Below the pieces are notes generated by a model. The model ran no database searches. It had not been told where the DNA came from and saw only the letters and a program-made list of their open reading frames with translations. From Ginglymostoma cirratum (taxonomy: Eukaryota): a stretch of DNA of 64,000 nt. A program made the position numbers and the translations under genes. How positions within the stretch are numbered: position 1 is the stretch's first letter; the number at the start of each line of letters is the position of its first letter. Below, piece by piece: positions 726 through 54,799 of this stretch. The DNA lies in NCBI GenBank assembly GCA_024137785.1, contig JAHRHZ010000012.1, forward strand, positions 72,068,958 to 72,132,957, in the 5' to 3' direction.

Positions 726-823
726 GAGATAACAAAGTGTGGAGCTGGATGAACACAGCAGGCCAAGCAGCATCATAGGAGTAGGAAAGCTTGACATTTC
801 GGGCCTAGACCCTTCATCAGAAA
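726..823 (-). mobile_element. Short Penelope-type non-autonomous element with hammerhead core (single arm)
   Basis: Minus strand reads TTTCTGATGAAGGGTCTAGGCCCGAAATGTCAAGC...TTATCTC. Same family as the copies at 3032, 13253, 21894, 29051 and 54605. Confidence 0.75.
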
Positions 824-842
824 CTCTCTGTTTCCTTTCACA

Positions 843-1155
843 GAGTCATAGAGTCATGCAGCATGGAAATTGACCCTTCAGTGCAACTCATCTACGCCGA
901 CCGGGTATCTAAATTGAACTATTCCCACTTGCCTGTGTTTGGCCCATATCCGTCTAAACCTTTCCTATTCATGTACCTGTCCAAATTTCTCTTAAATGTT
1001 GTAATTCCATACACGCACCACCCTCTGTATGAAAATGTTGCCCCTCATGACCCTTTTAAAGCTTTCCCCCTCACCTAAACCTATGCCATCTAGTTTTGGA
1101 CACCCCTACCCTTGCAAAAAGATCTTGGCTATTCAATTTATCTATGCTCCTCAGC
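843..1155 (-). mobile_element. CR1 LINE 3' end fragment
   Basis: Begins with the (AGAGTCAT)n-type tail in reverse. Reverse strand gives GQHFHTEGGACM..FKRNLDRYMN. Confidence 0.7.
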
Positions 1156-1339
1156 ATATAATAGTAAAGTGCATGGAATTGGGGTTAGTGTACTGAGAAA
1201 CTAGCCCTACTTCCATTTGGCACAGAAAATTAAAACCTGCAGTTTAAAACATGTACATTATATCAATCAAAGTAAATAAAATAGCTGCATTCGTTTTATT
1301 ATGGTAATGAGCTCACAAGACAGGTCTTGTAGCATACTA

Positions 1340-1620
1340 CAAACATACAACAAGGGACAAAAGTAGGCCACTCGGCCCTTTTAGCATAGCTGATTTATTT
1401 TTAACCTCATATCTAGATATCCCTGATAATCTTTCACTCTTTTGGTAATCAAGAATCTATCTACCTCTGCCTCGAAGATATTTAAAGATTTTGCATCCAT
1501 TGCCTTTTGAGAAAGGAAATTCTAAAGACCAACAATGCCTGAGACAAAACAAAAGTTTCCTAATCTCTATTTTAAATGGGCTTCCCATTATTTTTAAACG
1601 ATGAGCCCTGTTTCCAGAGT
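1340..1620 (-). mobile_element. CR1 LINE 3' fragment
   Basis: Similar to the other reverse CR1 3' ends in the window (aatctatctacctctgcc..., ctaatctctattttaaatggg). Confidence 0.55.
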
Positions 1621-1900
1621 ACCAGTTGTGATGCAGCCTCTGGGGAGAAGCTTTAGGTTCAATTCACATTTCAGGACTGAACCAATCATGACATGGCCAA
1701 ATAGGTTGATTATTTGCCTGTAAATCTTTCCAATACACCTGTTGGCAGGCTGTAAGAACAGGAGAATTTCCTGGTCAGCCATCTTGCAGAAGGCAATGGA
1801 TAATCACGTTACCAAGCATATTCATGGACTAATCAGTGAAAGTCTGTGGCTCCCAATTCCCCCTTGGAGCATGACACCTGAGGAGAAAGAAAAAAAATGA
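1620..1900 (+). mobile_element. Old tRNA-headed SINE with RTE-like tail
   Basis: B-box-like GGTTCAATTC, then a core (catgacatggccaaataggttgatta) shared with 3810-3930, 33170-33480 and 41420-41530. Has an agaaggcaatgg tail motif and an A-rich end. Confidence 0.45.
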
Positions 1901-2269
1901 GCTCAAATACTTGTCATTTCTAAGAGTATTTACCTAAAATTAATTCTGCTGATAAAAGTGTAATAAATAGAACCTATCTCATTTATCATTACTTAAACAA
2001 TAATTTCACAGCAAAAATAATGGTCATTCAGACAAATGTTGAAAATTAAGGAAAGACAGCATCGATTTGTTATTACAAAATCATGATTAACTAACTCAAC
2101 TGATTTTTTTAAAAAGGTAGCAGAAAGTTGTTGATGTAGTGTGCATGGACTTCCAGAAGGCAGTTGATGAAGCATCACAGAAAAGACTTGTGAGTAAGTT
2201 ACAGATTATGTAATAAAAGGGTCACTAGCAGTATGAGTACAAAATTGGCTGGTTGAAAGAAAGTACATA

Positions 2270-2885
2270 ACCTCTGCTCCTGTACTCAAATCCTCTTGAT
2301 CTGAAGGCCAACATACCATTGCCCTTCTTCACTGCCAGCTGTACCTGTATGTTTGCTTTCAGTGACTGGAGTAAATGGACACTCAGGTTTTATTGCACCT
2401 CCCCTTTTATAAATCTATCAACATTCAGATAATTATCTGATCTCCTGGGTTTTTTTTACACCAAATAGGATAAGTTCACATTTATCCAAATTAAACTTCA
2501 TTTGACATGAATTTGGTCACTCAATCAATGTGTTCAAATCACATTGAAGCATCTCTGCATCCTCCTTACAGTTCACCCTCCCACCCACTGAGTCATAGAG
2601 ATTGACAGCGTAGAAAAAATGCTCTTTGGCCCATTTAACCTGTACCAAGCTATTCTAATCACATCTAATCCCACCCAGTTTTGTGTTGCCTGCAAACTTG
2701 AAGATACTATACTTCCTTCTTCTAAATCATTATAAATGTATTCTGAATAGCTGAGGTCCAAGTGCTGATCCATATGGTATCCCACCAGCCACTGGCTGCC
2801 ACTCAGAAAATTACCTGTTTATTCTAGTCTGCCAACCAGTTTTCTATACATGTCTTACACAATCCTCAATTCCAGGCACTTTGGG
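2270..2885 (-). mobile_element. CR1 LINE RT fragment
   Basis: Reverse strand encodes the decayed SGIPxGSALGP..YIYNDL..FA(D)D RT region and beyond. Confidence 0.65.
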
Positions 2886-3031
2886 AGAATATGAAGAATT
2901 AGGTTGATAACATTGCATGGCACTTTGAATGAGCTTTGATTTCTCTATCTAGTATTATTGTTCACTTGTTAAGCATAGCATATTACTGGACAACCATTGG
3001 TACATAGGTATAATTGACAGAATTAATGGCT

Positions 3032-3169
3032 TCAGAGATAGTAGGAACTGCAGATGCAGGAGAATCTGAGATATACGAGGTGTAGAGCTGGATGAACTAA
3101 GCAGGCCAAGTAGCATCAGAGGAGCAGGAAGGCTGATGTTTCGGGCCTAGACCCTTCTTCAGAAATCTT
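3032..3169 (-). mobile_element. Short Penelope-type element with hammerhead core, 14 bp TSD
   Basis: TSD cagaattaatggct at 3018-3031 and 3170-3183. Minus strand reads CTGAAGAAGGGTCTAGGCCCGAAACATC. Confidence 0.8.
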
Positions 3170-3261
3170 CAGAATTAATGGCTGTTGCGTTTTGTATTAG
3201 AATGTTATGTCTATCACTCATGGGGCTGATTTCTGCATTTTTTTTCATGAAATGTCAAGTT

Positions 3262-3588
3262 TAGAATCATAGAATCCCGACAGTGTAGAAACAAGTCCTT
3301 GGGCCCAACAAGTCCATACCGACCCTCAGAGCATCCCTCCCAGACTCATTCCCCTATAACCCGCCTAATCTACACATCCCTGAACACTACGGGCAATTTA
3401 ACATGGCCAATCCACCTAGCCTGCACATCTCTGGATCGTGGGAGGAAACTGGAGCACCTGGTGGAAACCCATGCAGACACATGGAGAATGTGCAAACCCC
3501 ACACAGACTGTCGCCTGAGGGTGGAAATGAACCCGGGTCCCTGGCACTGTGAGGCAGCAGTGCTAACCACTGAGCCACCGTGCTGCCC
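3262..3588 (-). mobile_element. HE1/V-SINE-type tRNA-derived SINE
   Basis: Reverse strand head GGGCAGCACGGTGGCTCAGTGGTTAGCAC (A box) and GGGTTCATTTCC (B box), V-domain TGTGGGGTTTGCACATTCTCC, CR1-like (ATTCTATG) tail. Confidence 0.85.
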
Positions 3589-4649
3589 TGTTTATCGAGT
3601 TTCATGGAAGGATTCACTCCCTGAGGACTACTGAGTTTTCTTGTTGCTACTTACCAAACCCGCCTCATTGACTATCGACCCTACCCCTGGGGCATCCCTC
3701 TCATCTGATTCTAGCCTCGTTTTACCATTCTCCGTATCCAGCACAACTTGCTAGTCCTGGTAATGTCCGGTATCCCCGCCACGGGTGCCATATTTAAATG
3801 GTTGTTGTGCCTGTAACTGGTGCACTGAAAAGATTTTCCAGCTAATAACCAACCTATTTAGCCATGTTATGAATGCAGTAGTCCTGAAGTGGGAATTGAA
3901 CTCAAAGTTTCTCCCCAGAGGCTGCATTGTGACTTCTGTTGTTGTGACAAGGTCTGTTAGTCCAGTGCTGTCTTGCAGATTTCGTAATATTTATCCTGTT
4001 CATGGTAGAAAAAGAAAATTGGCACCCTTCTTTGCAGCTAGACACCTTGAGGTCCAGTTAGATGCAGTGATGTAAATGTGGGACAACTCCTTCCCTGAGG
4101 ACCAGGAGGAGAGTCCATGACATAAGAAGGTCAATGCCCTTCTCCACTGCACCAGTGTATATGCCACCATCTACACTCCAATGCCTCACACTCACTCCTC
4201 CTTCCCACCTCCGAAGAAGTCTCATGCTCTACCACTCTCAATATCACATTCAACACCTTCCCTTCCTTGCTATCATCCACTCCTGACATCATTAACCCTG
4301 CATGTCCTCTGAGCTGCCTACTCACTCAGTTGGGACACTTTGGCACCAGCACCAGAAGTAACAGTTTTGCCACCCATTCCCGTTTCCCTTAATACCTGCC
4401 TTTGCTCATTCCAGGAGGAAAACAGCCCAAAATTGGGCTGTTATGAGGGGTCATAGGCTCTGACCACCTTGAACACATGACTGACTATGGCCAAGTCCCT
4501 AGACTGGTACCAGGAGCTGGAAGCCCTCCCCACCAAAGGTTATTTCCCTTGACTTGACCGAGGACTGCTAAAAAGTATGGTAAGCTTCGTGACAGTCTGT
4601 CTGTGCTCAATGGTAAGGCAGTACAACAGATCTGTGAGCTTGGTAGAGA

Positions 4650-5810
4650 AATGTGGAAACATATAAGATAGGAACACAGCCCTTTGAATATGCTCTGCCA
4701 TTCAATATGATCATGGCTGAACATCTAATGCAGTATCCTGTTCCTGCTTCTTCCTTAAATCATTTGATTGCTTAGACCTAAGAACTATCTCTTCCTTGAA
4801 AATATTCAATGTTTTAGCTTCAACCATTTTCTATGGCAGAGTGTTCCACAGTCTCACTAGTCTCGGAGTAAAGACACTATTCCTTATCTCAGTCTTAAAT
4901 GGCTTATCCTGTATTCTTAGACCGTGAACCCTGGTTCTGGACTCCCTGGTCATCGGGAACATCTTTCCTGCATCTACCCTGTCCTATTCTGTTAGAAGAT
5001 TTATAGGTTTCTATGAGATCCTACCTTGTTCTTCGAAAATTCAGCGAATATAATCCTAACTAATCCAATCTCTTTTCATATGTCAGCTCTGCTGTCCCAC
5101 AAATCAGTCTGATAAACCTTCATTGCACCCCCTCCATAGCCAGAACATCCTTCCTCAGATAAAAAGACCAAAACTGCACACAATACTCCAAGTATGGGTC
5201 TTACCAATGCCCTGTATAATTGTGGCAAGACATCCCTGCTCCTGTACTCAAATCCTCTTGCTATGAAGACCAACATACCATTTGCCTTCTTTGTCTCTAA
5301 CGCACTTGCATGTTTACTTGCAGCAACTGGCATACAAAGAAACCCAAGTCATGTTCACCCCCACCTTTCCAGATCTTTTGCCATTCGGATAATAATACGT
5401 TATTCCTGCTGTTAGTACCAAAATGGATATCCCACATTTTATCCACATTATACTTCATCTCCCATGAATTTGTCAATCCACTCAACTTTACCAAATTACA
5501 CAGAATTATTTCTATATCCTCTTCACAGCTCACCCTCTCACCTAGCTTTGGTCATCTGCAAACCTAGAGATATTGTATTTTGATCCACTAACTAGATTAT
5601 TAATATTCATTCTGAATAGCCTTTGTACAAGGGGCCCTTGTACTGATCCCCACGCTACCCAACTACTCACTGCCTGCCAATCAGGAAAAAAAGATATGTT
5701 TATTTCTACTCTGTATCCTGGCCACCAACCAGTTCTCTATCCAAATCAGTACAAGACGCCTAATCCCAAGTGCTTTCATTTTACATGCTAATCTCTTATC
5801 AAATTTCTAA
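4650..5810 (-). mobile_element. CR1 LINE 3' fragment
   Basis: ORF track: KKANGMLVFIARGFEYRSRDVLPQLYRALVRP and WEMKYNVDK. Confidence 0.85.
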
Positions 5811-5829
5811 GGCTGAAGAGAGGGCTTTA

Positions 5830-8800
5830 AGGTAATTAGAAGGGGCAGTGTTTGGGAGATGGTAAATATAGGCTTACAAAGCAAAAGGATGTGACAGTGT
5901 TACGGGGAATTTATTTAGATAATGATACCCAGAGTGGGACAGGAAGGGGCAGAGTATACTAATGTAGAAAAACACCAGTAAATAGGGTAAAAGTGGAAAT
6001 AATAGTAGAGATGCAAAATTAATGGCTCTTTACTTGAATGCAAGTAGTATTTGGAACAAAATAGATGAATGAACTGCACAAATACAGGTAAATGGGCATG
6101 ATCTTATAGCCATTATGGGAACATGGCTACAAGGAGATGAAATATAGGTACTAAATGTTCAAAGATATGTAACTTTTCAAAAGGACATAAAGGAAGGAAA
6201 GGGTGGTGGGGTAGCTTTGTTGATGTGGGATGGAATAAGTACAACTGCAAGAAATGATCTTGAATCAGAAGATATAGAATCCATGCAGCTGGAGGTAAGA
6301 AATACAAAGGGAAGGAAGACACTGGTAGGAGTAGTCCATAAGCCTAGAACAATATATTGTGGATCCACCCAGGGAGCAGGCTGTTTTTGATCTAGTGATG
6401 TGTATTGATGCAGATTTAATAAATGAAGTCAGAGTAGAAGTTGCCCCACAGAAACAGTGACCATAAGATGGTAGAATATAACATTCAGTTTTGAAGGAAG
6501 AGAGAAACTTGAGTTGGAAACAACTGTGCTAACAATAAATAAGAATAGTTACAAAGGACTGAGGGCAGAGCTGGCTGGAGTGGACTGGGGAAAGAGTTTA
6601 GCAGCAATGATCATTGAGGAACAACGGTAAACTTTTAAGAAAATAGTTCATAGCTCACAGTGAAGACTTCCTGTGAGGTAAAAGGATTCCAGGAAGTGGA
6701 TAAACCAGTTATGGTTAACAAGGGAAATTAATGATAGCATCAAACTTGAAGAAGAAGCATACAATTTAGCAAAGATTAGTAGTAAGCCAGAGGATTGGGA
6801 AAGTTTTAAAAACTAAAAAAAGACTGAAAAGAGGGAGAAAATAAACTTTGCAATAAGCTTGCAAGTAATATCAAAATGGACAGAAAGACCTTCTTTAAAT
6901 GTTTAAAAATGAAAAGAGAAGCCAAAGTGAACATAGGCCTGTTCGAGAATATTGCTGGGAAATAACAATAGGTAACCATTAAATGGCAGAGGAATTGAAT
7001 AAATACTTCATATCAGTCTTCACAGCAGATGACCCTAATAATATCTGAAAATTAATAAATATTCAAAGGGCAAAAGGAGGGGAAGAAGTAAATAGAAAAA
7101 CTATGGCTGGTGAAAAAGTGGTAGGGGAACTAATAGGTCTACCGATAAATCTCCTAAACCTGATGGGATACATCTTAGCATAATAAAGGAAATAGCTGCA
7201 AAGATAGTAGCTGCACTGGTAGTAATCTTCTAGGAATTCTAAGACTCTGGAAAAGTCCCAGAGAATTGGAAAACTGCCAATGTAATATCATTATTTAACA
7301 AAGGAGGGAGGCCAATAAGGATAATTGTAGGCCAGTTAACTTAACATCTGTTATTGGCAAAATGTTAGAGTCTATTATACATGATGTAATAGTAGCACAT
7401 TTAGAAATGCATAATATGATCAAGTAGAATCATTGTGGCTTCATGAAGGGGAAATCATGCTTGACAAATTTACTAGAATTCTTTGAGAATGTAAAAAACA
7501 GGATAGATAAACGGGAAGCAATGCTATGCGCTTGGATTTCCAGAAGGCATTTGTTAAGATGCCACACATTAAGCTACTTAATAAATGAAAATAAAATATG
7601 TTGCAAGTAGCACATTAGACTAGATACAGGATTAGCTAACTAATAGAAGACAGAGAGTTGGGATAAAAGGGGTATTTGCAAGATGGCAACCTGTAAATAA
7701 TGGAGTACCACAGGAATCAGTGCTGTTGTCACAATTAATTACAATATATATTAATGGCTTGAATGAGGAAAATGAATGTACTGTGGACAAATTTGCAGAT
7801 GACACAAATATAGTTGGGAAGACAAGTGTGACAATGGCACGAAGAGTCTGTAAAATGATATAAATGAGTTAAGCGAGTTATTGGCAAATACTTGTGAGAT
7901 GGAATATAAAGAGGCGCAATGTGAGATTATGCACATTGGCAAGAAGAATAGAAGAGCTGAATGTTATTTAAGTGGAGAAAGTCTACAGAAATCTGCAGAA
8001 GAGAAGGATTTGAAAGTCCTCCTCTATGAATCACACACAGCTAGCAACCAAGTTCAGCGGGAATAGAGAAGTTGAATGAAGCGTAGGCCTTTATTTCAAA
8101 GAGAAATGGTGTCAAAAAATATGGAGGTTTTGCTCAAAATATACGAGGTACTAGTCAGACCACTGCTAGAATATTGTGAACAGTTTTGGACCCCTCATCT
8201 AACGAAAGACATAATGACATCAGAGACAGTCCAGAAAATATTAACTAGGCTGATACCATGTATGGTATGTCTATTTTATGAGGAAAGATTGACTAACTTG
8301 AGCCTATATCATTGGAATATAGAAGAATGAAAGGCAAAATTATTGCATGTTATTGATACATGCAAGATTCTTTAAGGACTTGACAGGGTAGATATAGAAA
8401 TATTGTTTTACCTTGTGGGAGAGTCTAGGACCAGACGGCATAATCTCAGATTAAGGGATTGCGTATTTAAAACAGAAATGAGGAGGAACACCCGTCAGAT
8501 GATTGTAAATCTAAGCAATTCTGGATCACAGGGGCTAGTTGAGGTTGGGTCATTAAATAAAAAGTATATTCAAGGCTGAGCAAGGCAGATTTTTTAAGAA
8601 TTCAGGAAGTATTTATATCATGGATAGGAAAATTATTGGAGAAGTTTCTGAGGGATAAGATTTACTCACATTTGGAGAAATGTGGACTTATTAGCAATGG
8701 CAGCATGGCTTTCAGTGGAAGAGGTCATGTCTCACAAACTTGATTGAGGTTTTTGAGGAAGTGAGAAAGATGATCGATGAAGGTAGGATGATAGGTGTTG

Positions 8801-10030: not shown

Positions 10031-10034
10031 GTCA

Positions 10035-12382: not shown

Positions 12383-13252
12383 TGTTTCTGACAGCTCTGT
12401 TTCCGAAAGAGAAAAATCTGAGCAAGTAACTAACGAGTTATACTGAAATCAAAGAGAATTCTGAGCTCTGAATGCTTTGATATAGTGGATTAATAGTTAT
12501 TGATAACGGTCATTTTGCAGACTTTATTGTTAGCATTTATTTATTACTGCTTTTACTATCATGACTGTGTAATTACAATATTCATGTTTTATAACCGAGG
12601 CTAATTTGACAGTTTAAAATAGGCACAGCAAATAAATATGACTGCTAGAAGTCAGATGGCTGATTCTTGTTAATTCACAGTCAGCCAAAAGCAGAGAGAA
12701 TGTTGTGTTATCTCAACATAAACAGAAATAGGAACCAGTTAGAATTCAAAAGTCCTTGAACAACACAATGGGGCCTTGTTAAATGTGTGAGAATTTAAGC
12801 CTTCTGCGATGACAAGCAAAACATTCACGGGGAATTCCAGCATAATTGATTTTGCTGTGTGAGGCAATAATCCATCTAAAGTTAACACATCAGCTATCCT
12901 AAATTTGACACGTTAAGGCTATAGGAATCAATTTTAAAATCTTCCCAGGAAGTTCAGAGGGAATGTCATCAAATAGCATTTTCAGCTCAAATTAAAAGTC
13001 TATATCAGAAATAAACAGTCTGTTAAGAATCTCCAAGCAATTAGCAAGTGATGTAAATACAAAACTAGTGAGGAGGGAAAAAAATCTTCTCAAAACGATA
13101 TTATCTCTATTTCAAAATTTCAAAAATGCGAAATGTATGAAAGGTTAGATGTCATTTCATATAAGACACTTCTTTTGTGGAATCCAACAAGGATGTTTGC
13201 GAGTGCTGGGCCTAGCAGGAATCTGATGGCAAAACCATTGCCACTAATAGGA

Positions 13253-13428
13253 CAACAAGGTGTAGAGCTGGAGGGACACAGCAGGCCAAGCAGCATCAGA
13301 GGACCCTTCGGGTCTAGGCCTGAAATGTCAGCCTTCCTGCTCCTCTGATGCTGCTTGGCCTGCTGTGTTCACCCAGCTCTACACCTTGTTATCTCAGATT
13401 CTCCAGCATCTGCAGTTCCTGCTATCTC
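13253..13428. mobile_element. Fold-back Penelope-type element, 14 bp TSD
   Basis: Inverted arms (caacaaggtgtagagctgg / ccagctctacaccttgtt). TSD tgccactaatagga at 13239-13252 and 13429-13442. Confidence 0.8.
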
Positions 13429-13429
13429 T

Positions 13430-14135
13430 GCCACTAATAGGATGCTGCTGTGAAGTCAAAACTACATTTTCCCTATCACGCAAATGAATGAATCGATTTA
13501 TGAATTTTAGTGCCTTTGTGATGCCAGATTTGCAGGCCATTAATCCCAAAGACTGGCAGAGTGGATCAAACAGCACATCCATTTGGGCATTTGCAACAAG
13601 CAAGGCATTGACCTTATCAACAACCCCTTGCTGGTAACGTTCACAACACAGTATCCCACTTAGGTGTGATTTTCCAATGGACCACATTTGCTGGATAATC
13701 CTAAGTGTGTAAAAAATTGTGTTACAAATGAATTAAAGGTTGTCAGTCAGGCTTTCAGTGTGGCACATGTGCATGTCCTGGAAGCTACAAATGTTAATAA
13801 ACAGTGTGGCTGCTCCAAGTCAACAAAATAGGTGACAACTAATTAATTTCTCAGGTTAATGCCCTGACTGACGAGTGTCAACTTGCCTGGTGTAAAATTT
13901 AAATAAATTTTGGTTGTTAATTATCAATTATCATAGATTGGTGCATGTTCCATGGCTAAGCCCCTACCAATCAGAATCCACTTGTCAACCAATGAGCTGC
14001 CTCCTCTCATTCAGCATAATTGTGACTTTTTCCCTTAAATTAGTATTCTTGTAAATTTCCCTGCTCGTGAAAAGCATTGACAAGATATGACTATTTTCAG
14101 CAATAATCAAGTTCTGCATGACTAAACAACTATTT
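13430..14135 (+). mobile_element. Decayed Penelope-like element (GIY-YIG endonuclease C-terminus + 3' region)
   Basis: + strand translates IYEF*CLCDARFAGH*SQRLAEWIKQHI...CDFPMDHI..KVVSQAFSVAHVHVLEATNVNKQ, a degenerate GIY-YIG domain. Confidence 0.7.
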
Positions 14136-20840: not shown

Positions 20841-21893
20841 TACATTTTCTATGAAGTTCCTAGGAAAGTGCATAATGTACCACAAAAAATTACCCACAAT
20901 GCCACTTCTTTGCCCATTGTCCTAGCCTGTCCAAGTCTTTTGGAAGGCTCCCTGCATCCTCAACACTACCTGTCCCTCTGCCTATTTCTGTGTCATCGTC
21001 AACCTTAGCAATAATGCCGTCAGTTCCTTTGACCAGGTCGTTAATGAATTATGTGAATAATGGTGGTCCCAACATGACCCCTTGGAACTCCACTACTTGC
21101 CAGCTGTCATGTTGAAAAAGACTCCTGTATACCTACTCTCTGCCTTCTGCCAGTCAGCCAATCCTCTATCCATGTAAACACCGTGCCCTAACACGGCTCT
21201 TATTTAGCAGTTTCCTTTGTGACTGCTTGTCAAAAGCTTTCCGGAAATTCAAATCGATGACATCCACTAATTCTCCTTTGTCTAACTTGCCTGCTACCTC
21301 CTAAAAGAATTCCGACAGATTTGTCCGGCATGACCTCCCCTTGATGAAGCCATGCTGACTCAGCCCTATTTTACCCTGCACTTCCAAGTATTCTGCAATC
21401 TCATCCTTATTAATGGACTAAAATCTTACCAACGATCGAGGTCAGGCTAACTGGCCTATAATTTCCCATCTTCTGCCTCCCTTGATGACACCAACAATGA
21501 ATCCACCAACGCAGGGTACAATTCCCATTCTGACTGGATTAGAATTGAGGCCAGTCACCTCACTCTATCTAAAGTAAAATGTTATGATAGCAACTTAACA
21601 AGGAGAACATTTGAATTGTTCAGTCTAGAAGTAACAAAGGGATAGATGAGGTCTCCATCATAGAGTACCTGAGGCAGGTCAGAGTTGGACAATTTCCTAT
21701 GAATTTATCCATTTCCCTTAAAGTGTTGTGTGTTTGTTCCTGATATTTCAGTCATACATCTACAACCCCAAAAATGTCAGTCTTAGCTATTCCCATGATC
21801 AAAATTGTCACTTAAACAATTAATATTTTTCAGAGCTTTGAATGTTGAATTGTAACATTATATGTTTCGGTTAAGCAATTGGATTATTTATTC

Positions 21894-22118
21894 GGGATAA
21901 CAAGGTGTAGAGCTGGATGAACACAGCAGTCCAAGCAGCATCAGAGGAGCATGAAGGCTGACGTTTCAGGCCTAGACCCTAGACCCTTCTTCAGAAGAAG
22001 GGTCTAGGCGTGAAAGGTCAGCTTTCCTGCTCCTCTGATGCTGCTTGGCCTGCTGTGTCCATCCAGCTCTACACCTTGTTATCTCAGATTCTCCAGCATC
22101 TGCAGTTCCCACTATCTC
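21894..22118. mobile_element. Fold-back Penelope-type element with hammerhead cores, 14 bp TSD
   Basis: About 100 bp inverted arms centred near 21993, plus a 33 nt tail. TSD tggattattta(t/c)tc at 21880-21893 and 22119-22132. Confidence 0.85.
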
Positions 22119-22479
22119 TGGATTATTTACTCACTTGGTGAATTCTTGAAGTATTTGACATTGTAAGATTCCTTGGCCTGATGTTAGCAGGTCAAAACCT
22201 GTGACCTGACCAACCTTCTAGATCTGACGGCTTGTTTCATTTTTGCCTCTTTTCCGATGTAGTCTTGACATCTCAGATGATACCCAGATCCAAACATCTT
22301 AAGATCGTTTCCTATTAGAATTTAAATTGTTGCTTGCACCTTCCAAATACATATTGAAATGTGGATGTCGTCTAGCACTCTTGGAATCATTTTTATGTGT
22401 TAATTTATGTTTAACGATCATTCGTTTGTGATTTAGAAATTCCGCAATTCACTTGCTTCTGTCTTTTTTTTGACAATTT

Positions 22480-26980: not shown

Positions 26981-29050
26981 ACAAGTATCAGTTTGAGCCC
27001 CAGTAACACAGACCTAACTCTGGGTCAGCTGCGGTTTACAGCCAGGACTGTTCATGATTATTCCAGCGTTGCCGCCCCGGATACTGTATGCAAACAGGCT
27101 CCTTTCGATGTCGTCTTGTTGCACAAAATAAATGATTTAAAACATATCTGGTGAACATTTCTATTCAGTGAATAAGCTGGAATGATCGCAGGTGCCTTGG
27201 TGATTTTAATCTGTAATTTTAATATATTATTTAGTGATGAGAAATCCTTTAAAACCCATCTCTCAAGACGGTGTTGGGCCCAACAAGATTCGAGTTCAGT
27301 CGATTGTGGTCACTGGGGTTCAGAACTCCAAAGCAAATCCCTTGGTCCCGACTGTCACTTTTACCGCTGGATCAAAATCGATTCTTCAGAATTAGCTTAG
27401 AGTACAGATAGCCCTCTCATGTCAAATGCTGAAACTGCGCTTTTCACTTCCTCAGGTGCCGAGATCAGATTAATACTTATGAAGACATTTCACTGGTTAA
27501 CAACATTTATATTCGTGTGTTTTCTTTCCGGGCAAACATTTTTTTTTGCCAGTACTTAAATCAGTGAGGGACCCATCCGGAATTTGAGGTGACCACTAGA
27601 ATACCACGCATCACTTGCAAATGATTTAAACGACCGGTTGCACTGAACGAATATTCATGGACTAACGGCAAAAACCCTCATGCCACCACAGTTCACTGTT
27701 GTTTCCGATAAGCAAGCGTCAGCATAGAAAGCAGCTAGGCATTTTGGCACGGGGAACTCATTCAGTGACTAGTTACATTGTGAATTCACTCCTCCCATTT
27801 AATCTGCAGAGGAAACATTATCTCTGGCAGATCCCCAAAGGTAATCAAATAAACTCCAGAATATTCATTCATCGTTAGAGCTTTATCATTCAATCTGGTT
27901 TTGACAGCCCACAGACGGAATTCTCTCTTACCCTGCCCCAAAACAGTTCCATGAAAATTGTTCCGTTTATACCTGCACCTGTCCCATTTAAATGTTTTCT
28001 AGCACCTTCCTGAAAAAAAGCAGGATAAAAGTCTGATCTATCCTTTGAGTACCTGATATTCATCAACATTGCAATTAGGAAATCGTTTATTTTGAGTGTA
28101 AAGAGCTCAAGAGAAGATATTAATTTGGTTGAAATGAATCACTGGCCCACTACCTGACAGTGTAGAAAAAAATTCAAAGCTTTTGAAATTTATTTGACAG
28201 AAGAAATACTTTCATGGAGATAATTTTATAACTTTCCAATATTATTAATCTAACCTGTTGTAATTTAGATTTAAAATAGCATTATAAGTAGCATATAGTA
28301 GGATTCTGAAAAAAAAATGCCAAGGTATTATAAAGTTATATGTAACTGTGACAGAGTTTGGAACATATAAGAGCAGCAGAATATTTATTTGTGTAGAATT
28401 CAGGACTCTTTAAGTGTTTATGTTTACATATGGGGCCAAGAGGGATGTGCAAAAAGCTAAATGGAAATCAATACTACTCTGGGTTAAGATACTGTGCACA
28501 AAACTAGTCCCTGGCTTTGAGAAAAGAAACACTTACTGTACCTATGCATTGTTATAAATAGTATTTAGTAAGTGTAAATGTTGCACTGATTGATTGTGTC
28601 ACCTATCGAATAGGTGTTGAAACACTTCTTGAATGAAGTTCAACTAAAACTGCAGAATAATCAATGCTGCATGTGGTGTCCATGCTGAGTGTCTTGCAGA
28701 AAAGACAACATTTTGAATCAAAGAAGGCTGGGCAGTCAGATACAGCTACTGAGTGGGTGACTCTTAATCACAAGATAACTGGTGAAAAATATAAAACGGT
28801 TGAAATGTTTTAACATATAGTCAGCCAAATGAATTAGTGATTGGATAATAATTTCTAATTACATTAAACCACTGCCCTAAAGCAAAGAATTTTTACATCT
28901 ATCAAAATTTCCCTGTCAACATTTAAAATTTTGATAGATGTAATGTTGCTGCAATTAAGTAATAAGCCAAAGAGCAAATCAATATGCTGAAAGTGCACCA
29001 GGGTTGTCAAATTCCTGATTGTCCTGCAAATACCCAGCTCCAAAATTAGA

Positions 29051-29567
29051 GAGATAAAAGGTACTACAGATGCTGGAGAATCCGAGATAACAAGCATGGG
29101 GCTGGNNNNNNNNNNNNNNNNNNNNNNNNNNNNNNNNNNNNNNNNNNNNNNNNNNNNNNNNNNNNNNNNNNNNNNNNNNNNNNNNNNNNNNNNNNNNNNN
29201 NNNNNNNNNNNNNNNNNNNNNNNNNNNNNNNNNNNNNNNNNNNNNNNNNNNNNNNNNNNNNNNNNNNNNNNNNNNNNNNNNNNNNNNNNNNNNNNNNNNN
29301 NNNNNNNNNNNNNNNNNNNNNNNNNNNNNNNNNNNNNNNNNNNNNNNNNNNNNNNNNNNNNNNNNNNNNNNNNNNNNNNNNNNNNNNNNNNNNNNNNNNN
29401 NNNNNNNNNNNNNNNNNNNNNNNNNNNNNNNNNNNNNNNNNNNNNNNNNNNNNNNNNNNNNNNNNNNNNNNNNNNNNNNNNNNNNNNNNNNNNNNNNNNN
29501 NNNNNTTTCCTGCTCCTATGATGCTGCTTGACCTGCTGTGTTCATCCAGCCCCATGCGTGTTATCTC
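29051..29567. mobile_element. Fold-back Penelope-type element spanning an assembly gap, 15 bp TSD
   Basis: Arms on both sides of the N run are reverse complements. TSD ctccaaaattagaga at 29038-29052 and 29565-29579. Confidence 0.8.
29106..29505. other. Assembly gap (400 N)
   Basis: N run. Confidence 1.
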
Positions 29568-29617
29568 CAAAATTAGAGAACTGCATTAAAACAAACTACT
29601 GCAAGCTGAGAATTTAA

Positions 29618-46929: not shown

Positions 46930-47070
46930 TAAGATAGAATAAAGAACTGTGAATACCTGAGATCAGAAATAAAAACCTAAATTCCTGGTGAAATGCAGCA
47001 GATCTGGAAGCATCCATGGGAAGAAAGCAGAATTAACATTTTGAGTCTGGTGACTCTTTATTAGAACTCA
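46930..47070 (-). mobile_element. Older Penelope-type terminal repeat fragment
   Basis: Similar to the arm at 57995-58105 and to the tail at 44460-44522. Confidence 0.5.
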
Positions 47071-48134
47071 AAATTGATATTAAAAGTCCTCAGTGAAGCC
47101 TGAGCACCCTCAAGTAATTTCTGGATTTTATACCAAAACAATATTGATGCTCATGAAAGGTAGATGTAGGACATCTAGAGCACTAGAAGGCAATATATTA
47201 CTGAAGGTCATTCAGTCATTCTCTAAGCAGTGAGTGTTCATTTTCACTGTACACAGATAACTCTTATGTTTCTCAGAGAGAAATATCTCACAACTCTTTA
47301 TCTTAGCCAGAGACATTGAGATGCTTCTGGACATTCATACCCTGTGAGCTTTTGGGAATAGAATTTCTTATTTTGAAATGAGAATACAATGGTCACTGTC
47401 AGTGCCCCAAATGGCTTTTGTTAAGTGTACATTCTGCCTGCCCCTTTGCCAAGTAATAACATAATTGATTAGATGCCAATGTCTACAGTGGTGATGTATG
47501 CAAGGTGCTTTGTTGTGATTAGAGAAGTGGAAAACTGCTGATGATTACATGCTCATACACACACATCTTCTTCAGAAGGGCATCATTGCTGTTGTCTTAT
47601 TGCTGATCCTATTTTTTCCAGTGACCCCCTTCTCATGGCTGGTGATCTGCACTACCTCTTGTGTTGAAGTTGTAAAGAATGACTAGCTTGCCTAAGTTAA
47701 CCAATCAAGGAGAGAGACCACCATAAAATTATCCTTAGCTTAATCAGGGTTGGTTACATTAGAGGTGTATACACTGATGAGATTTGCCTGCTTGTGCTGT
47801 GCAAGGGGAGTTTAAATTTCATCGCATGATCGATAAGACTCTTCTGCTTATACTTTTTGCCACTTCCTGTCACATTTTGATGATCGTTCACGACCCTGAA
47901 CCTCTTTCAATTTTTTAAATCTTCCCTTTAATAGAACCCTCTCTTCCCAACTAATTAGTTTAAAACATTATCTGCAACTATGGTCTTATGATTCATGGCT
48001 TTGGATAAATTATGAAACATATGAGAACATATGGCTTTACTAGGACTGTAGGCTTCCCAATGGTGCAGGGTGTCATTGCCTTGCAACTACAGCATGTTAA
48101 TTGTACCCTCTTCTCAATATAAAGGATAATTAAA

Positions 48135-48468
48135 ACTAACCAGATTATTATTCCAGAGACCCAGGATAATGTTCTGGAGACCTGGATTCAAATCTCATCA
48201 TGGCAGATGTTGGAATTTGATTTCAATAAAATAAATTGGAATTAAAAATCTATGGATGACTGTGAAATCATTGTCAGTTGTTGGAAAAAAAAATCTGGTT
48301 TACTAATGTCCTTTAGGGAAGGAAACAGCTGCCCTAACCTGTTTGACCTACATGTGACTCCAGATTCACAGCAATGTGGTTGATTCTTAATGGCCCTCTG
48401 TGCAATTAGGGATGGTGCCTATAAGCTGCTGAGTCAGTGACGTCCTCATCCTGTGAATGAATATAAAA
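48135..48468 (+). mobile_element. tRNA-headed SINE, family II
   Basis: Colinear with 43503-43856. Confidence 0.8.
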
Positions 48469-48929
48469 AGGACTCTCATAATGTCCAGCCAATGTGTGAC
48501 CATATGCAACAAATCATGCAAGTCAATACATAGTACCTTGGTGACAGTTATGGTGCCATCATTCTGAGGTTGCTCCCTTTCCTAGGTATATTCGAGCTAC
48601 TAAGGCAAAACAAAGAGTGGCTGTTCAATGATGAGGGCCCCCTAATTATGCCATAGTTGATGACTTAGCTGCACAGCCCATGCACATATGCACTACATGC
48701 AAACCAAGGAGCTGTGATACAGCATACAGTAGTGTCCTGAAACACCATTTCCATTCCCAGGATTGCTTTGGAGGAGTTCTGCAGAAATCATTAGAGTAGG
48801 TGTCAAATTTTATTATGTGTGCTGCTATCTGTATCTTTTAAGTGTGTCGGTGCTTTGGGGGTTTTTGAGGTCCCAGTGTATGCTAGAGTAACTACCTTAT
48901 GGTTTAACAAGAAGAGTCCTTTGCAGTCA

Positions 48930-49830
48930 TTAAGATGCAGTTTATTGTCTATAACTATTTATGGATTATAAGAATAAACTCGATATTAATACAGTATTGT
49001 TGAGAGGACCTAGTCTTAGGCCTGCCTCCCATGAGAGAGATTCCTATTTTGTTCTACTGCAAATTCTACCTGACACCATCACAGTGGGTAGTACTCATAT
49101 TTAATCAAGTGATAACCCTTTCAGACCTATATTTTGCAACTCCCCAAACTTTTTTCTGGCAATTATTGTTGATGTATATTTGTTTATATAGTTTCATTTA
49201 CCATTGTCCCATCTACCACACCAAATCTTTGATTTGAAAAATTCAGATGAACTGGATGCTTAACTATCCTCCCTGAATAGGTTTGCTTTGGACTTAAAAG
49301 ATTGCTAGTTTGTTGGGTTGAAGGTAGTTGTCTTGGGCTGTATTTCTGTGATCTAATTGTGGTCTTCTGTACTGGAGGACCTTTCATCTCCTGTATTTCT
49401 ACAAAGGAGGATGTCATCTCTTCCTGAGAAAGTACATTTTTCTTTGCCGTGTCATAAATATTTATACATTGACATCTTAATGGTGTCTTCTTGAAGTTGT
49501 GTGCACTGCATCCTCATTTTGTACAGAACTTGCCCTTTCAACAATTTTATTAGTTCTGAGCTTGAAATAATTGTCAAAGGCTTTCAGTATGTCCTCAAAT
49601 GTGTATGTTGCTTCTTTTATCCCTATGGTGAGCAATAATATTCTCTGCTATACTCCTAATTGTATCCAAAAGTGTACTTACTTGTTCAGCTTCTGACTTA
49701 GCATCCAGTTTAGAAGCCATTCTATATCTCAATAATTGTTTCCTTCAGAATGTCCAATGTTGTGTTCTATTTGGCCCATTTTTGAAATTAAATATTCCTG
49801 AATATACTACTTCTGGTATTATAGCTTCCT
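48930..49830 (-). mobile_element. Internally deleted Ty3/Gypsy remnant
   Basis: Reverse strand gives gag-like WTF*RKQLLRYRMASKLDAKSEAEQVST (about 49670-49755) and a pol C-terminal QTYSGRIVKHPVHLNF only about 400 bp away. Confidence 0.55.
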
Positions 49831-50220
49831 AATGTGATTAGATATTTTAACTTAATTAAACATTTTTATTTTGCTGTAATGACAGTTGTCCTGCACTTTA
49901 CTGCTATCCTGAAGGCTTTTCCTGCTTTTTGTGACTTTAATGGAGGGTTCTTATGCTTTCAATGCTGAAATAGACGATCTCTTGCCTTTTGCAGCTATAA
50001 TGGGCTCACCTCAAAAATTTCAATATTAGGCCAGAATTGCTCACTTCGTTAAATTGCCTAATACTTATCTGTTTGAAATGACTGGGTTTGTGACTTTCTC
50101 AGCTCCCTGCTCACAGATTTCATCTGTTTTTCTCTTGACGCCATTAATTCCTTATTTTTCTAGCCATTATTGCAGTGATGCCTGATCCAAGCTGCACCTT
50201 TTTTTTTAAGAAAAACTTTT

Positions 50221-50540
50221 CATAGAATCCCTACCATGTGGAAACAGGCCCTTTGGTTCAACAAGTCCACACCAACCCTCAGTGCATCCTACCCACCCCC
50301 ATTCCCTATAGCCCACATAATCTACACATCCATAAACACTAAGGGCAATTTAGTATTGCCAATCTACCTAGCCTACACATCTTTGGACTGTGGGAGGAAA
50401 TTGGATCACCCAGTGGAAACCCACACAGACACAGGGAGAATGTGCAAACTCCACACAGATAGTTGCCTGAGGGTAGAATTGAACCCAGGTCCCTGGTGCT
50501 ATGAGGCAGCAGTGCTAACCACTGAGCCACCATGCCACCC
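50221..50540 (-). mobile_element. HE1/V-SINE
   Basis: Colinear with 3262-3588. Confidence 0.85.
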
Positions 50541-50849
50541 TTTCAGCCTGAATTACTGCTCTATTTAAAGTTTGGTTTTAGTTTGACTCATGCAATCTCC
50601 AATGTATGTTCAATTACTGACTGAAATTGGACGTGAGACCAGCCCTACAGACCACTGCCTCACAGTGCAGCCTGTCCCTCTGCCTTGGAACTTCAGATTT
50701 CTTTTGTTACTGTGCATCTCTAAGCAGAGCTGAAATACTTTCTGTTATTCTTTGAAGTATTCTTCCTTGTTGTGTCACCGCAAGACTTTTCTAGGGTTTG
50801 CTGATCTCAGTAATCAGGACTATCCATTCTCCTTGAAATTCACTTGCAA

Positions 50850-53800
50850 TAGTCGTCTTGGAGTTGGGGGTAAGCGTTGCTAGCATCATGCCATTATTTA
50901 GAAAGTTTGACTCGTTCCATCCTGCGGTCGAAGGCTTGGGCCCAGTATGTGGAAAGAATGTGCCTTTTTTCCAGGCAAATGACATTGGGGCAAATGGAAA
51001 GCAATGAGTATTTCTCTTGACAGCTTGTGGAGCCGCAGCTTTTTTTGGATATTAGGAGCCTAATTTTCCCTGAGGCACCAGATACTAAAATCTTTCAATA
51101 GTTGATGGATTTAGTTAAGAAGTATTATGAATCCAAGCCTCCTCTAATTATGAAACACTATTGGTTTTACTAAGCAATTTGAGAACTGGGGGGATCCGTA
51201 TTGGGATTTTTGTCAAGGTTAAACTGACTGGCAGACGCATGTGACTTTGGTTTAGCCCTTAATGAGACTCCATTAGACTGTTTGTTATGTGAGATTAATG
51301 TTGTAACTGTGCAAAAGTGCCCACTAGCTGAAGCCCAACAGGACTTCAAACAGGCTCTACAACTGGCTTTATCATTGGAAAATGCAGCAAGTGGAGCATA
51401 TGAATTGCAGGGTATTCTGATGAAAGTGGACACCTTCATCAGTCCGACTGAGCTCAGGGAACACCACTCGAGTGAGGGAATTGCATAGCCTCAGTCAGGA
51501 CATATCCCGAGCAGAGGAGCCCTAAGTCCACTCACAGCAAAATCCCAAAACAAAGCCAAGCCTTGGCCAAATGGTTAAAATTTTCTTCAGGATCTAGGCC
51601 AGCAAACCATTGCTGTTGCTGCTGGTATGTAGACTTAAATCAACAAAACAGTCCCGCTGGACCTAAATTGAGTAAGAGAACTCAAAGACCCATATGTTGG
51701 AGAGTGCACACCCTGGAAAGTCTTCCAATACCTTTAGGGACATAAATTTGTAATAATAATGGACCCCAAGCCCCTGCTAAGGCTATTGAAAGTCAAGGAA
51801 GTGCTTCCCAAAGCTTCAGTCTGAATTCAGTGGTAGGCTCTCATTCAAAGTGTGCATAATTACAAGTTGGAACATTATCCGGGAGGCAAAACTGCAAATG
51901 CAAATGCATTGAGTGCCTCCCACCGGCAGATAAACCACCAGCAGTACAGCCACTGGAAAAGTCCGTCGTGATTTTAAATTTTCTGGACACTTCCAGTCAC
52001 AGCTGACAATATCAGACTTTGCATGTAGAAAGATCCAGTCCAGGCAAAACTGCAAAAGCTAGTAGTGATGGGGAAACCAAACGGCTGTCACAACCAGAAC
52101 TGAAACCTAGATCACCATAGAGGATGGCATATTGTGAGGAGCAGGCGTGATTGCCTTGAGTACAGGTCGCTGCCAGATACTAGCTGAACTTCACGCGGTC
52201 ATCCAGGGGTTTCCAAAATGAAGATGTTGGTGAGAAGTTGTGTATGGGGCCAGGATTGGAAGCAGACATAGCCATGTTGGTAGTGCAGTGCCCGGAGTGC
52301 CAACAAGGACAAAAATTACTATCAGCAGCTCCCTCATATTTGTGTGAATGGCTGGGTAAACCCTGGGCTCAGCTATATGTCAACTATGCAGGTCCTTTCA
52401 TTGGCTCAATGTTCTTAGTCATTATATACACCCACTTAAAGTGGCTGGACACGCAAAGGGTTCATTTGTCAAACATGGGACAACCATAACAAAACTGCAT
52501 GCATCTTTCACAGACTCCTGGAAGTGTTTCATAGAATCCCTACAGGGCAGAAGCTGGCCATTCAGCCCATCAAGTTCACACCGACCATCTGAAGAACATC
52601 CCACTCAGACCCACATCCTACACCATCTCTGTAACTCTACATTCCCCACGACTAATCCACCTAACTTACACATCCCTCGATGCTATGGGCAATTTAGCAA
52701 TGCCAATCCACATAACATGCACATCTTCAGACTGTGGGACGAAACTGGAGTATCTAGGCGAAAACTACACAGACTTGGAAGAATGTGCAACCTCCACACA
52801 GACAGTCCCCTGAGGGTGGAATCAAACCCTGGCCCCTGACGCTATGAGGCAGTAGTGCTAACCACTGTGCTACCTGTGCTCCTATCAGTAATTGTCACTA
52901 ATAAGAGGCCATCATTTTCCGGCAGGGAATTTAAGTAAGTCCTAAAGTCAAATAGTATTCAACATAAAAAGACAACTCCACACCACCGAATGGCCGGCAG
53001 AAAGAGCAGTCCAAACTCTGAAGGCAGGCTTAAAGAAACAGTCTAAAACTTCACTATATACAAACTGTCTTTGTTCCTATTTGATTATAGAACCAGCCCT
53101 CATGCAATAACAGGGATGGTTCCAGCAGAGTTGCTAATGGGGAGAAAACTCCGTACCAGATTAAATCTGATCGTCCCGGAAGTGGGGACAGAGGGTGAAA
53201 TGGTGTCAGGAATGCCAATGCCAGCCACAAGATTCCACCAAGCGAGAGAGAGACAGTTTACTTCAGGGGACGAAGTTTAGTGTAGGAACCATGGGAATGG
53301 CCCTGGATGGGTATGAGGCATGGTTGACATGAGGTCAGGTCCCATGATGTATAAAGTTCGGGTAGGTGCGACAGTTCTGAACAAGCATATGAAAGCTGCA
53401 ATCTCACAAATGGTGTGGGAGAAAAACTTGCCCAGCTCCTCTACAGCCTTTCTGACTCTTCCAGAACCCATGGGTTCTCCGTCTCCGTCAAGCATTGAAG
53501 ACACCTTGGAATCTGAGATGGATATGGTAGATGTCGCCACCTTGGTGCCTTTGCTGGTTAAAGATGAGTGAATTTCTTCCGAAACGCTCTGGGCGCAAGA
53601 AGGCCAGAGATACTGTGATATACACGCAGCCCATGTCAGAGACAGTGTTGGAGGAACCTGACCCAGTGCTAAAATACTTTGGGAGGAGCTACAAAAACAA
53701 ACAACTGGCCTCTGTCCACAGAGTCAGAGGGAGGGATATAGTGATTATAATGAGGTCAGCCAGGTGGTCTTCATAGAATATGAGAGCCCTGACTGGGGCT

Positions 53801-53972
53801 GTTAACCTGGTCCAATCAGGAAGCCCTGGCTAACAGATATAAACAGGGGTGTTAGAGATTCTGTTCAATCTGAGCGCCAGCTCTGAGGAAGCTGGACCAG
53901 TGTTAAGTACAATGTACAATTAAATATAGGGTGACTTGGTGATGGGATACTGGCCTCTGTGGAGATATTTCA
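50850..53972 (+). mobile_element. Decayed Ty3/Gypsy LTR retrotransposon (gag, integrase, 3' LTR)
   Basis: gag MPLFRKFDSF..RLRLAD ACDFG..LAEAQQDFKQALQLALSLE. Integrase HPGVSKMK..CPECQ..WAQLYVNYAGPF and FLFDYRTSPHAITG..PAELLMGRKLRTRL. Polypurine tract agagggaggg at about 53727, then an LTR at about 53738-53972 ending TCA. Confidence 0.85.
52529..52881 (-). mobile_element. HE1/V-SINE inserted in the Gypsy integrase
   Basis: Colinear with 3262-3588. Splits the integrase between GLLEV and IVTNK. Confidence 0.85.
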
Positions 53973-54604
53973 CCCCCCCTTTCCACCTACCACTGCTCCT
54001 TCCCCCTCCCGTCCCCTCCCATCCAATTTCCGTCACTACTAAGACCTCCTGTGCATTGTCTGAAAATCTTGCTGCCTTCTGTACATGCTTTGTGTCTTTC
54101 CCAAGTCAGACTCCCAGCGCCTACTCCAATCACAGTTACCCTCCCCTCCATGAGATATCTGCTAACTTTAAGCAATGCTTGCATTAGTCCCATGCTGATG
54201 GGCTGTGCCAGTGAACAGATCAATTATAACTGACTGGATGCAGGGATTATTCAAATGAGCAGGCATGATGGAATTGGTGTGGTGCTTGAATTATAATCAA
54301 TGGTCCAGATTGTCGAATGACCAGAGAACCATTTCTGCAGAGTAGATGGGAGTTCTGTATGGGGACCCTGCAACATTCCCATCAAAGCAGACTCCAAAGG
54401 AATTGCTGAATGGCCTGTAAGCTGAGACAGCGACACTCGCACTCATTCAGACAGAGGAAATATCATCCCTGCATTCAGTCTGTCAAGCCCTGTCAGAATG
54501 TAACATGGTTCAATGAAATCCCCACTTGTGTTTCTGAACTCCAATGAATATAGACATCATGAACCAAATCTCTCCTGATAAAACAGATCTGCCATCCCAG
54601 GAAT

Positions 54605-54799
54605 CACAGCAGGCCAAGCAGCATCATAGGAGCAGGAAAGCTTGACGTTTCGGGCCTAGACACTTGCATTTCTGATGAAGGGTCTAAGCCCGAAACATCA
54701 AGCTTTCCTGCTCCTATGATGCTGCTTGGCCTGCTGTGTTCATCCAGCCCTGCACCTTGTTATCTCAGATTCTCCAGCATCTGCAGTATCTTTTATCTC
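54605..54799. mobile_element. Fold-back Penelope-type element with hammerhead core, 12 bp TSD
   Basis: TSD tcccaggaatca at 54595-54606 and 54800-54811. Inverted arms. Confidence 0.85.
54672..54700 (+). ncRNA. Minimal hammerhead ribozyme motif
   Basis: CTGATGA-A-GGG tctaag CCC-GAAA-C-ATC: conserved CUGANGA and GAAA boxes, helix II and an NUH triplet. Helix I is weak. Confidence 0.55.

Follow-up and report, generated by a model that had tools for sequence, protein, structure and literature searches.

Six copies of a short repeat

The window, by which we mean the whole 64-kb stretch of shark DNA analysed here, holds six copies of a short repeat, all found where the first-pass annotation had placed them (726, 3032, 13253, 21894, 29051 and 54605). 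These copies, their TSDs and the predicted hammerhead motifs are listed below, with module coordinates counted from 0 at the first C of CUGANGA.

726..823 (-): single arm, module -3 to +93, ending at the inner 3' site with the tail absent; a TSD was looked for around this copy and none was found
793..820 (-): minimal hammerhead motif with all core nucleotides; helix III 4-mer ATGT, triplet GUC
3032..3170 (-): single arm, module -4 to ~+129, tail present
3018-3031 and 3170-3183: 14-bp TSD of the copy at 3032
3135..3162 (-): minimal hammerhead motif, core nucleotides intact; helix III ACAT (CpG decay), triplet AUC
13253..13428 (+): head-to-head insertion; short inverted arm ~13253-13303, main arm 13310-13428 (module +8 to +126, without the CUGA box)
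13239-13252 and 13429-13442: 14-bp TSD of the copy at 13253
21894..22118 (+): head-to-head insertion; inverted arm 21896-21980 (module +7 to +91), main arm 21990-22118 (module -2 to +126, core broken)
21880-21893 and 22119-22132: 14-bp TSD, one mismatch, of the copy at 21894
29051..29567 (.): putative head-to-head insertion; two outer arms around 400 N, 29051-29105 (-), tail-bearing, and 29506-29567 (+), module +32 to +93
29038-29052 and 29565-29579: 15-bp TSD of the copy at 29051
54605..54799 (+): head-to-head insertion; inverted arm 54605-54665 (+6 to +66), main arm 54667-54799 (-5 to +126)
54595-54606 and 54800-54811: 12-bp TSD of the copy at 54605
54672..54699 (+): minimal hammerhead motif, core nucleotides intact; helix III ACAT, triplet AUC

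The TSDs of 12-15 bp reported earlier for five copies were recovered at 14, 14, 14 (one mismatch), 15 and 12 bp, whereas none of 148 randomly chosen control sites reached a score >9. A hammerhead start had been ascribed to every copy; the CUGANGA box is indeed visible on an arm of those at 726, 3032 and 54605, but not in the other three, of which 21894 is broken, 13253 begins beyond the box and 29051 has N in this region. An intact box together with the palindromic ACGT is visible in none of the six. Likewise, the four copies described as inverted dimers are head-to-head fold-backs, that at 29051 being deduced from its two outer arms because the hammerhead region (29106-29505) is N, but they combine a sense arm with its reverse complement and not two same-strand ribozymes; ribozyme dimers formed from the inverted arms were ruled out on sequence for this reason.

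The hammerhead motif and the parent element

Searching with a 25-nt core pattern at up to 3 mismatches gave 3 matches in the window against 0 in 100 shuffles. The predicted motif has the minimal type I core (CUGANGA...GAAA..UH, with helix II and a short helix I), which upholds its earlier identification as a putative Penelope-type minimal hammerhead. We collected 117 motifs with a descriptor that required the core letters and not the pairing, and counted base pairs with an anchored script; a MAFFT alignment of several motif families came out of register. Helix II pairs are intact in 113-117 of the 117, and helix I pairs 1 and 2 in 110 and 106, respectively. Helix I, previously put at only 1-2 bp in the six copies, instead measures 4 bp in young-subfamily motifs and 2-3 bp in those of older subfamilies. 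The proposal that the ATC and TGTC variants reflect CpG decay is consistent with the helix III counts (ACGT 85, ACAT 22 and ATGT 6 of 117). The helices of these motifs show one-sided changes only (pair 4: U-G 98, U-A 18, C-G 1), alongside a variable loop; double changes, on both sides of a helix, emerge only in comparison across two further motif families in the genome. A check against Rfam, with E up to 1, returned no hammerhead family among 8 matches, which comprised below-threshold miRNA-like hairpins, attributable to the fold-backs, and one weak snoRNA match. Single arms, when folded, did not adopt a hammerhead (z -1.1 to +1.5), a result uninformative for dimer-type motifs. If the hammerhead is active at all, the prediction is that two same-strand copies within the parent transcript work together as a dimer; short and fold-back copies probably just carry it along.

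Of the 30 top-ranking genomic matches for the copy at 3032, seven run upstream into a common C/T-rich stretch, and several of these seven contain RT and GIY-YIG reading frames. An 813-aa frame matches RVT_1 (PF00078) at residues 325-468 (E 5.7e-7) and GIY-YIG (PF01541) at 699-776 (E 5.5e-5), both passing the Pfam cut-offs, and thereby presents the single ORF with RT followed by a C-terminal GIY-YIG domain of a canonical EN+ Penelope-like element (PLE). A CX4CX2C linker (CNRRKCYTC, at residue 662) lies ahead of the GIY-YIG domain; by this CX2-5CxxC signature (PMC8557442) the parent classifies as a Neptune/Nematis-type PLE, and is provisionally called Neptune-type here. A PDB sequence search with the ORF gave two weak unrelated matches only, and Pfam found no family in the 409-aa frame of one other locus (L024). 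In 20 of 20 fetched long-ORF loci the motif lies behind the UTR. A module of ~130 nt, made up of the minimal hammerhead motif and a ~33-nt tail, occurs on both sides of the ORF, 166 nt upstream of the ATG and ~255 nt downstream of the ORF end, and UTR-module-ORF tandems are found at L152 and L164; a hammerhead-holding terminal repeat thus precedes and follows the ORF, as in a pLTR. This anatomy was pieced together from overlapping natural copies (L122, L135 and L261), and no one copy was recovered that has both modules with a whole intact ORF between them. The exact core occurs 73,554 times genome-wide, marking a very abundant element.

The parent is autonomous and resides in the same genome as the short units. 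The first-pass annotation had seen in these units a non-autonomous retrozyme-like family, a reading that is not supported; they are instead the terminal module of that element, and the short repeats belong to a known kind of element and not to a new mobile family.

Insertion structure and the origin of the short copies

The earlier density estimate of about one copy per 10 kb was close: we sampled 102 insertions in 872,490 readable bases, or one per 8.6 kb. The 3' ends fall at two fixed points ~33 nt apart, at ~+92 and ~+126, with 51 of 133 arms ending at +89..+96 and 65 at +114..+126. The starts lie either near the motif 5' edge or scattered up to 2 kb upstream: 57 of 127 arms begin within 10 nt of this edge and not at the cut site, as do 4 of the 13 ORF-start copies examined. 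The clustered 5' ends are ragged over ~20 nt (-8 to +10), and in one TSD-bounded insertion (L261) the common start is reached twice. A common 5' end at the cleavage site was ruled out (8/127 arms at +25..+33), and no clear excess of a copied cap G was seen (4/19 before ATTT). The first-pass annotation had set against its own proposal the case of random truncations with no common 5' end; the copies are indeed truncations of an autonomous element, but not random ones, because many start together at the motif edge.

Thirty-six of the 102 insertions are inverted, 34 of them head-to-head, and in 26 of the 36 one arm carries the tail while the other stops at the inner end. These have the inverted 5'-truncated copy with a 30-40 bp tail on one end that is typical of EN+ PLEs (PMC8557442, PMC3846280). 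Arm lengths vary independently and the fold-back junctions form 35 distinct pairs among 36, and these near-unique junctions rule out a fold-back master element. TSDs of 13-16 bp flank 36 of 86 insertions versus 4 of 294 controls; at the threshold used, the other 50 of the 86 had none. No head-to-tail array was found among the 133 arms, and six same-strand pairs within 1 kb are all at least 120 bp apart.

We consider it probable, at roughly 0.88, that the six repeats are terminal-module copies of the autonomous Neptune-type PLE and likely dead-end by-products of its insertion. The element's RT/GIY-YIG protein, which is upheld as the likely mobiliser as first claimed, would copy its own RNA into new sites and leave the short copies as by-products. 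In Anolis Poseidon there are two internal RT start sites, both target strands are cut and extended, and insertion in vitro does not need cleavage (PMC11167929). By analogy, the endonuclease would cut both target strands with a stagger, RT would begin internally at two fixed sites, and both cut strands would prime, so that two cDNAs join head to head, giving a fold-back in which a single arm bears the tail. Less surely, priming in the 5' module may run off the RNA 5' end after ~95 or 130 nt. Such a run-off would give the short class its common start, and the clustered start at the motif 5' edge likely marks the RNA 5' end. Single and opposite-strand minimal hammerheads have previously been attributed to truncated PLEs (PMC4209133). 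Poseidon, from which this model is taken, belongs to a different clade. The module alone makes up 71 of the 102 sampled insertions, a share exceeding what smooth truncation would give, so that a second RNA source may exist.

The most serious competitor, to which we assign an appreciable but lesser likelihood, accepts the by-product origin and differs solely in that last step: the templates would continue upstream, and RT would stall or fall off at the boundary between hammerhead and C-rich UTR. The raggedness of the 5' ends, which favour no single base, the C-tract upstream and the lack of surplus G all fit this, as does Drosophila virilis Penelope, in which an intron separates the hammerhead from a start site placed well upstream of it (PMC2377424, PMC4209133). 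However, the adjoining 20 nt on the upstream side hold the ends of just 3 of 127 arms, and of none among the 94 with >=88% identity, other C-rich UTR stretches have no such pile-up, and stalling would have had to strike the same start twice in L261. More speculative, and in our view rather unlikely, is that the RNA starts at the foot of helix I and that internal priming in the 5' module gives a retrovirus-like "strong-stop" cDNA. Failing transfer, this would be inserted as a short copy; alternatively, it would jump to the template 3' end, perhaps one made by hammerhead cleavage, which would share ~32 nt with the RNA start, to rebuild the pseudo-LTR. If so, tens of thousands of copies would record pLTR regeneration and the purpose of the hammerhead.

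For the fold-backs, self-priming on an antisense template in place of priming by both cut target strands has been proposed for head-to-head PLE inversions (PMC3846280), and it would suit the 34 of 36 head-to-head cases. We regard it as improbable here, as the arms mostly end at two different fixed 3' sites (26/36), which are analogues of RT start sites on sense RNA (PMC11167929), and vary independently in length.

A final alternative treats the short units as a non-autonomous family in its own right, akin to retrozymes or SINEs: its members would be transcribed, would cleave themselves or form circles, and would be moved in trans by the Penelope protein. Long and short forms coexist in both subfamilies counted genome-wide, the share extending at least 9 nt into the UTR being 57% of young-subfamily motifs (15,925 of 27,833) and no more than 44% of those in an older one (1,601/3,665). 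When 45 short and 26 long arms are placed on one tree, the two intermingle (22 label changes versus a shuffled mean of 21.5), though this tree is of low resolution, with 95 columns and few supported forks, and one weakly supported group of nine rows is all short. Neither a lineage of their own at this resolution nor a repeated master structure (35/36 distinct junctions) was found. Two raw-read RNA runs were used, one of which gave only 47 reads. In one poly(A) run the module is abundant and its reads are equal on both strands; no pile-up of molecule starts or ends was seen at any position, in what is a weak test of ends, and no cut-site joint appeared among the best 15 of 167 joints in a library that selects against circles. 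The dominance of short units, their common 5' end, the abundance in poly(A) RNA, the existence of PLE-derived retrozymes in vertebrates (10.64898/2026.07.22.740005) and the consideration that, since internal initiation needs the module alone (compare PMC11167929), any module-holding transcript could be a template speak for such a family; nevertheless, the missing arrays, a common start upstream of the core and rarely at the cut site, the intermingling of long and short copies, the near absence of repeated junctions and, as a weak test, the RNA reads largely refute it, and we hold it to be very improbable.

Relationship to known elements

With Neptune-type EN+ PLEs (PMC8557442, PMC3846280) the shark element shares one ORF with RT then GIY-YIG, the CX2-5CxxC linker, a hammerhead-bearing pLTR, heavy 5' truncation, an adjacent inverted copy, a ~33-nt tail at one end and TSDs. 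It differs in being present in very many copies, with exact cores numbering at least 73,554, in its TSDs (13-16 bp versus 8-10 bp in the rotifer examples) and in a large class with 5' ends at the upstream edge of the hammerhead, which was not found in the parts of published PLE accounts available. Metazoan PLE minimal type I hammerheads similarly have CUGANGA, one unpaired base before helix II, G10.1-C11.1, a short helix I and a small palindromic helix III, and occur mostly singly or as opposite-strand pairs; helix II is 7-8 bp in Schistosoma examples as opposed to 4 bp in the shark predicted motif (PMC4209133). The Poseidon element PAc of Anolis carolinensis likewise ends at two fixed 3' points, which are separated by the length of a tail and lie on the downstream side of the hammerhead; the latter sits at the pLTR/ORF junction. 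PAc belongs to a different clade, and its ORF begins within the hammerhead and contains the RT start sites (PMC11167929), whereas in the shark the ATG follows at a distance of 166 nt, with both fixed ends ahead of it. Animal non-LTR retrozymes are also short, non-coding, equipped with a type I hammerhead and kin to PLE termini (PMC7229834; 10.64898/2026.07.22.740005); however, they are head-to-tail tandem arrays, each unit with a hammerhead, expressed as circles, whereas the shark copies are dispersed, single or head-to-head, with no adjacent same-strand pair among 133 arms.

Our search of the literature on this element in sharks found nothing relevant, and the family may already be catalogued in Dfam or Repbase. 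As a family it is ordinary: yet another Penelope-like element accompanied by the debris that such elements usually leave, albeit in very many copies. What deserves attention is how sharply the 5' ends cluster just upstream of the hammerhead. Its insertions being nearly identical and numbering tens of thousands, this young element offers a cheap test bed for the run-off/template-jump model by mapping of 5' ends.

Copies in the window and in the genome

All six copies that the first-pass annotation had placed in the window are present at their positions, and they are real, abundant and mostly explained. Their extents, measured against natural long copies, are given in coordinates of the module, the ~130-nt terminal unit of a Neptune-type Penelope-like element, in which 0 is the first C of CUGANGA, the inner 3′ end lies at ~+92 and the tail end at ~+126.

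Extents of the six copies, named by window start
726: covers -3..+93
3032: covers -4..+129
13253: covers +8..+126, with an inverted arm
21894: covers -2..+126, with an inverted arm
29051: two outer arms flanking 400 N (window 29106-29505)
54605: covers -5..+126, with an inverted arm

The target-site duplications (TSDs) claimed for five copies were recovered at 12-15 bp in five of the six, copy 726 being without one, and 0 of 148 control sites score >9. The hammerhead core pattern has three matches in the window versus none in 100 shuffles. The earlier description of a CUGANGA box with a palindromic ACGT stood in part: the box is visible on an arm in three of the six copies, in none of them together with ACGT, and the Rfam scan then proposed yields no hammerhead match in the window at E up to 1.

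Two other repeats were observed in the window. A second, larger fold-back (58583-59594), from an older family unrelated to the hammerhead copies and with relatives at loci L079 and L243, bears a GIY-YIG-like remnant in both arms (tblastn E 2e-4 and 5e-4) and is likely another Penelope-like insertion. Another dispersed repeat, which may resemble a tRNA-derived SINE of sharks, has three copies (3267-3589, 50220-50541 and 52529-52874).

Across the 4.36-Gb assembly, whose repeats have a shark-like appearance, the exact 25-nt core occurs 73,554 times, and 33,900 times preceded by 9 nt of UTR; these may be lower bounds because some stretches read N. Using patterns of equal length, 15,925 versus 27,833 motifs (57%) run on into the UTR in the young subfamily and 1,601 versus 3,665 in an older one (44% at most, since a sister subfamily fits the UTR pattern too). 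A sample taken at round coordinates (120 stretches, each 10 kb long; 60 from two contigs; 20 avoiding already-examined places, hence a slight undercount of young copies) comprised 1,200,000 bases, of which 327,510 read N. Within the 872,490 readable bases we counted 102 insertions, comprising 133 arms: 71 insertions have the module only, 11 reach the UTR and 20 the ORF. Literature searches on Penelope elements in sharks yielded no description of the family, which may still be catalogued; the retrozyme families of one chondrichthyan, listed in supplements to 10.64898/2026.07.22.740005, may bear on novelty.

The parent element

Among the 30 best genomic matches to copy 3032, seven extend upstream into a common C/T-rich stretch, and several of these contain RT and GIY-YIG reading frames. 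A genome search with this protein returned 146,908 candidates at first look, and scoring covered 113 of them; in all 20 loci chosen for long open frames the motif lies behind the UTR. An 813-aa frame exceeds the curated cut-off for RVT_1 (E 5.7e-7) as well as for GIY-YIG (E 5.5e-5) and contains a CX4CX2C linker, a type that PMC8557442 assigns to Neptune and Nematis. One module lies ~255 nt past the ORF end and another 166 nt ahead of the ATG. Upstream sequence was read in the 13 furthest-reaching of 30 loci with the ORF 5′ part: four start at (A)TTT-CTGA, two extend into the UTR as tandems, three are interrupted by N, three start within the module and are rearranged, and one lacks the ATG region. 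No single complete parent copy was recovered among the loci examined. One TSD-bounded insertion (L261, G000:C51:14040001-14044800) consists of two modules with 1.5 kb of the ORF 5′ part between them, with an ATTT-CTGA start in both modules and the parts joined at a 3-nt C microhomology; it reads like a template jump following a first run-off.

In the UTR just before the hammerhead, ~24 nt ahead of the motif, loci L164 and L152 have a pyrimidine tract whose last bases are CAG, which resembles a 3′ splice site. D. virilis Penelope has an intron whose end lies at helix I (PMC4209133).

The tree, which compares 45 short with 26 long arms over 95 columns (the other 62 of the 133 were dropped because of their length, their identity, N or an intermediate start), requires 22 changes between short and long; shuffling gives 21.5 on average. 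One long arm has an identical short counterpart. Five branches are well supported, one weakly supported group of nine arms is all short, and the 95-column tree leaves room for small short-only lineages.

The predicted hammerhead and its RNA

The motif is a predicted minimal hammerhead. In a non-random set of 117 motifs of this family from all fetched loci, the four helix II pairs are retained in 113-117, the loop varies, and pair 4 is U-G in 98, U-A in 18 and C-G in one, with no real covariation. In the young subfamily helix I consists of the pairs U-A, U-A, U-G, A-U; older subfamilies have a shorter one. Of the sampled arms covering the box, 48 of 71 keep the full core letters and 34 of 71 both these and ACGT. 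The same architecture, spelled in different letters, recurs in two further motif families of the genome. The first has G-C as third helix I pair in 27 of 34; the second (7 of 7) has C-G, A-U, C-G in helix I, A-U as third helix II pair and the palindrome AGCT.

Further minimal-hammerhead families (locus:positions)
L195:2737-2776
L058:895-934
L227:2554-2592
L244:672-710

This shared architecture supports a hammerhead fold across the families. The cleavage position is mostly U in both other families (31 of 34 and 7 of 7), and U there usually makes a poor site. Published minimal Penelope-like hammerheads cleave poorly or require protein (PMC4209133, PMC11167929).

In one poly(A) RNA run, 56,512 reads map to the 3′ end of the element, divided evenly between the strands and several-fold deeper on the module than on the UTR, a pattern consistent with passenger transcription of many copies. 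This run, which tests ends weakly, has no pile-up of read starts or ends there, and none of the 15 best-supported joints falls at the cut site.

Insertion ends, fold-backs and their formation

What the sequences show directly is the element's anatomy, two fixed 3′ ends, clustered 5′ ends, TSDs and head-to-head arms. Among 133 arms, 51 end at +89..+96 and 65 at +114..+126, which corresponds to the 30-40 bp tail described in PMC8557442 and PMC3846280. Of the 86 insertions testable for TSDs, 36 score above threshold, versus 4 of 294 controls, and 28 of these 36 TSDs are 13-16 bp long.

The 5′ ends of 127 arms in which they are clear, placed with four subfamily references, fall at -10..+10 (57, a ragged cluster), at -30..-11 (3), at least 31 nt upstream (33), around the cut site at +25..+33 (8) or elsewhere within the module (26). 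If the short copies are dead-end products of the autonomous element's insertion, the odds are slightly better than even that the cluster marks the 5′ end of the element's RNA. The sequence there may resemble an initiator motif, and an extra G is in no clear excess at the cluster; the rival explanation is RT arrest at the C-tract. By analogy with PMC11167929, insertion would involve staggered cutting of both target strands, each cut strand priming one cDNA, and RT starting internally at the two fixed 3′ sites.

An inverted arm is present in 36 of the 102 sampled insertions, head-to-head in 34. The 36 have 35 distinct junction pairs and 26 combine one inner end with one tail end; therefore each fold-back was likely created anew upon insertion. 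Runs of 100 or 400 N are often central in inverted insertions (window 29106-29505; L002, L003, L123-L129, L133-L140), so fold-back structure is under-read in the assembly. The hammerhead dimer of PMC4209133 needs two copies on the same strand, whereas fold-back arms here lie on opposite strands; among the 133 arms there are no adjacent same-strand pairs and six spaced at 120-991 bp. Since the second arm is the reverse complement of the first, RNA through a fold-back would bury the hammerhead motif inside a hairpin.
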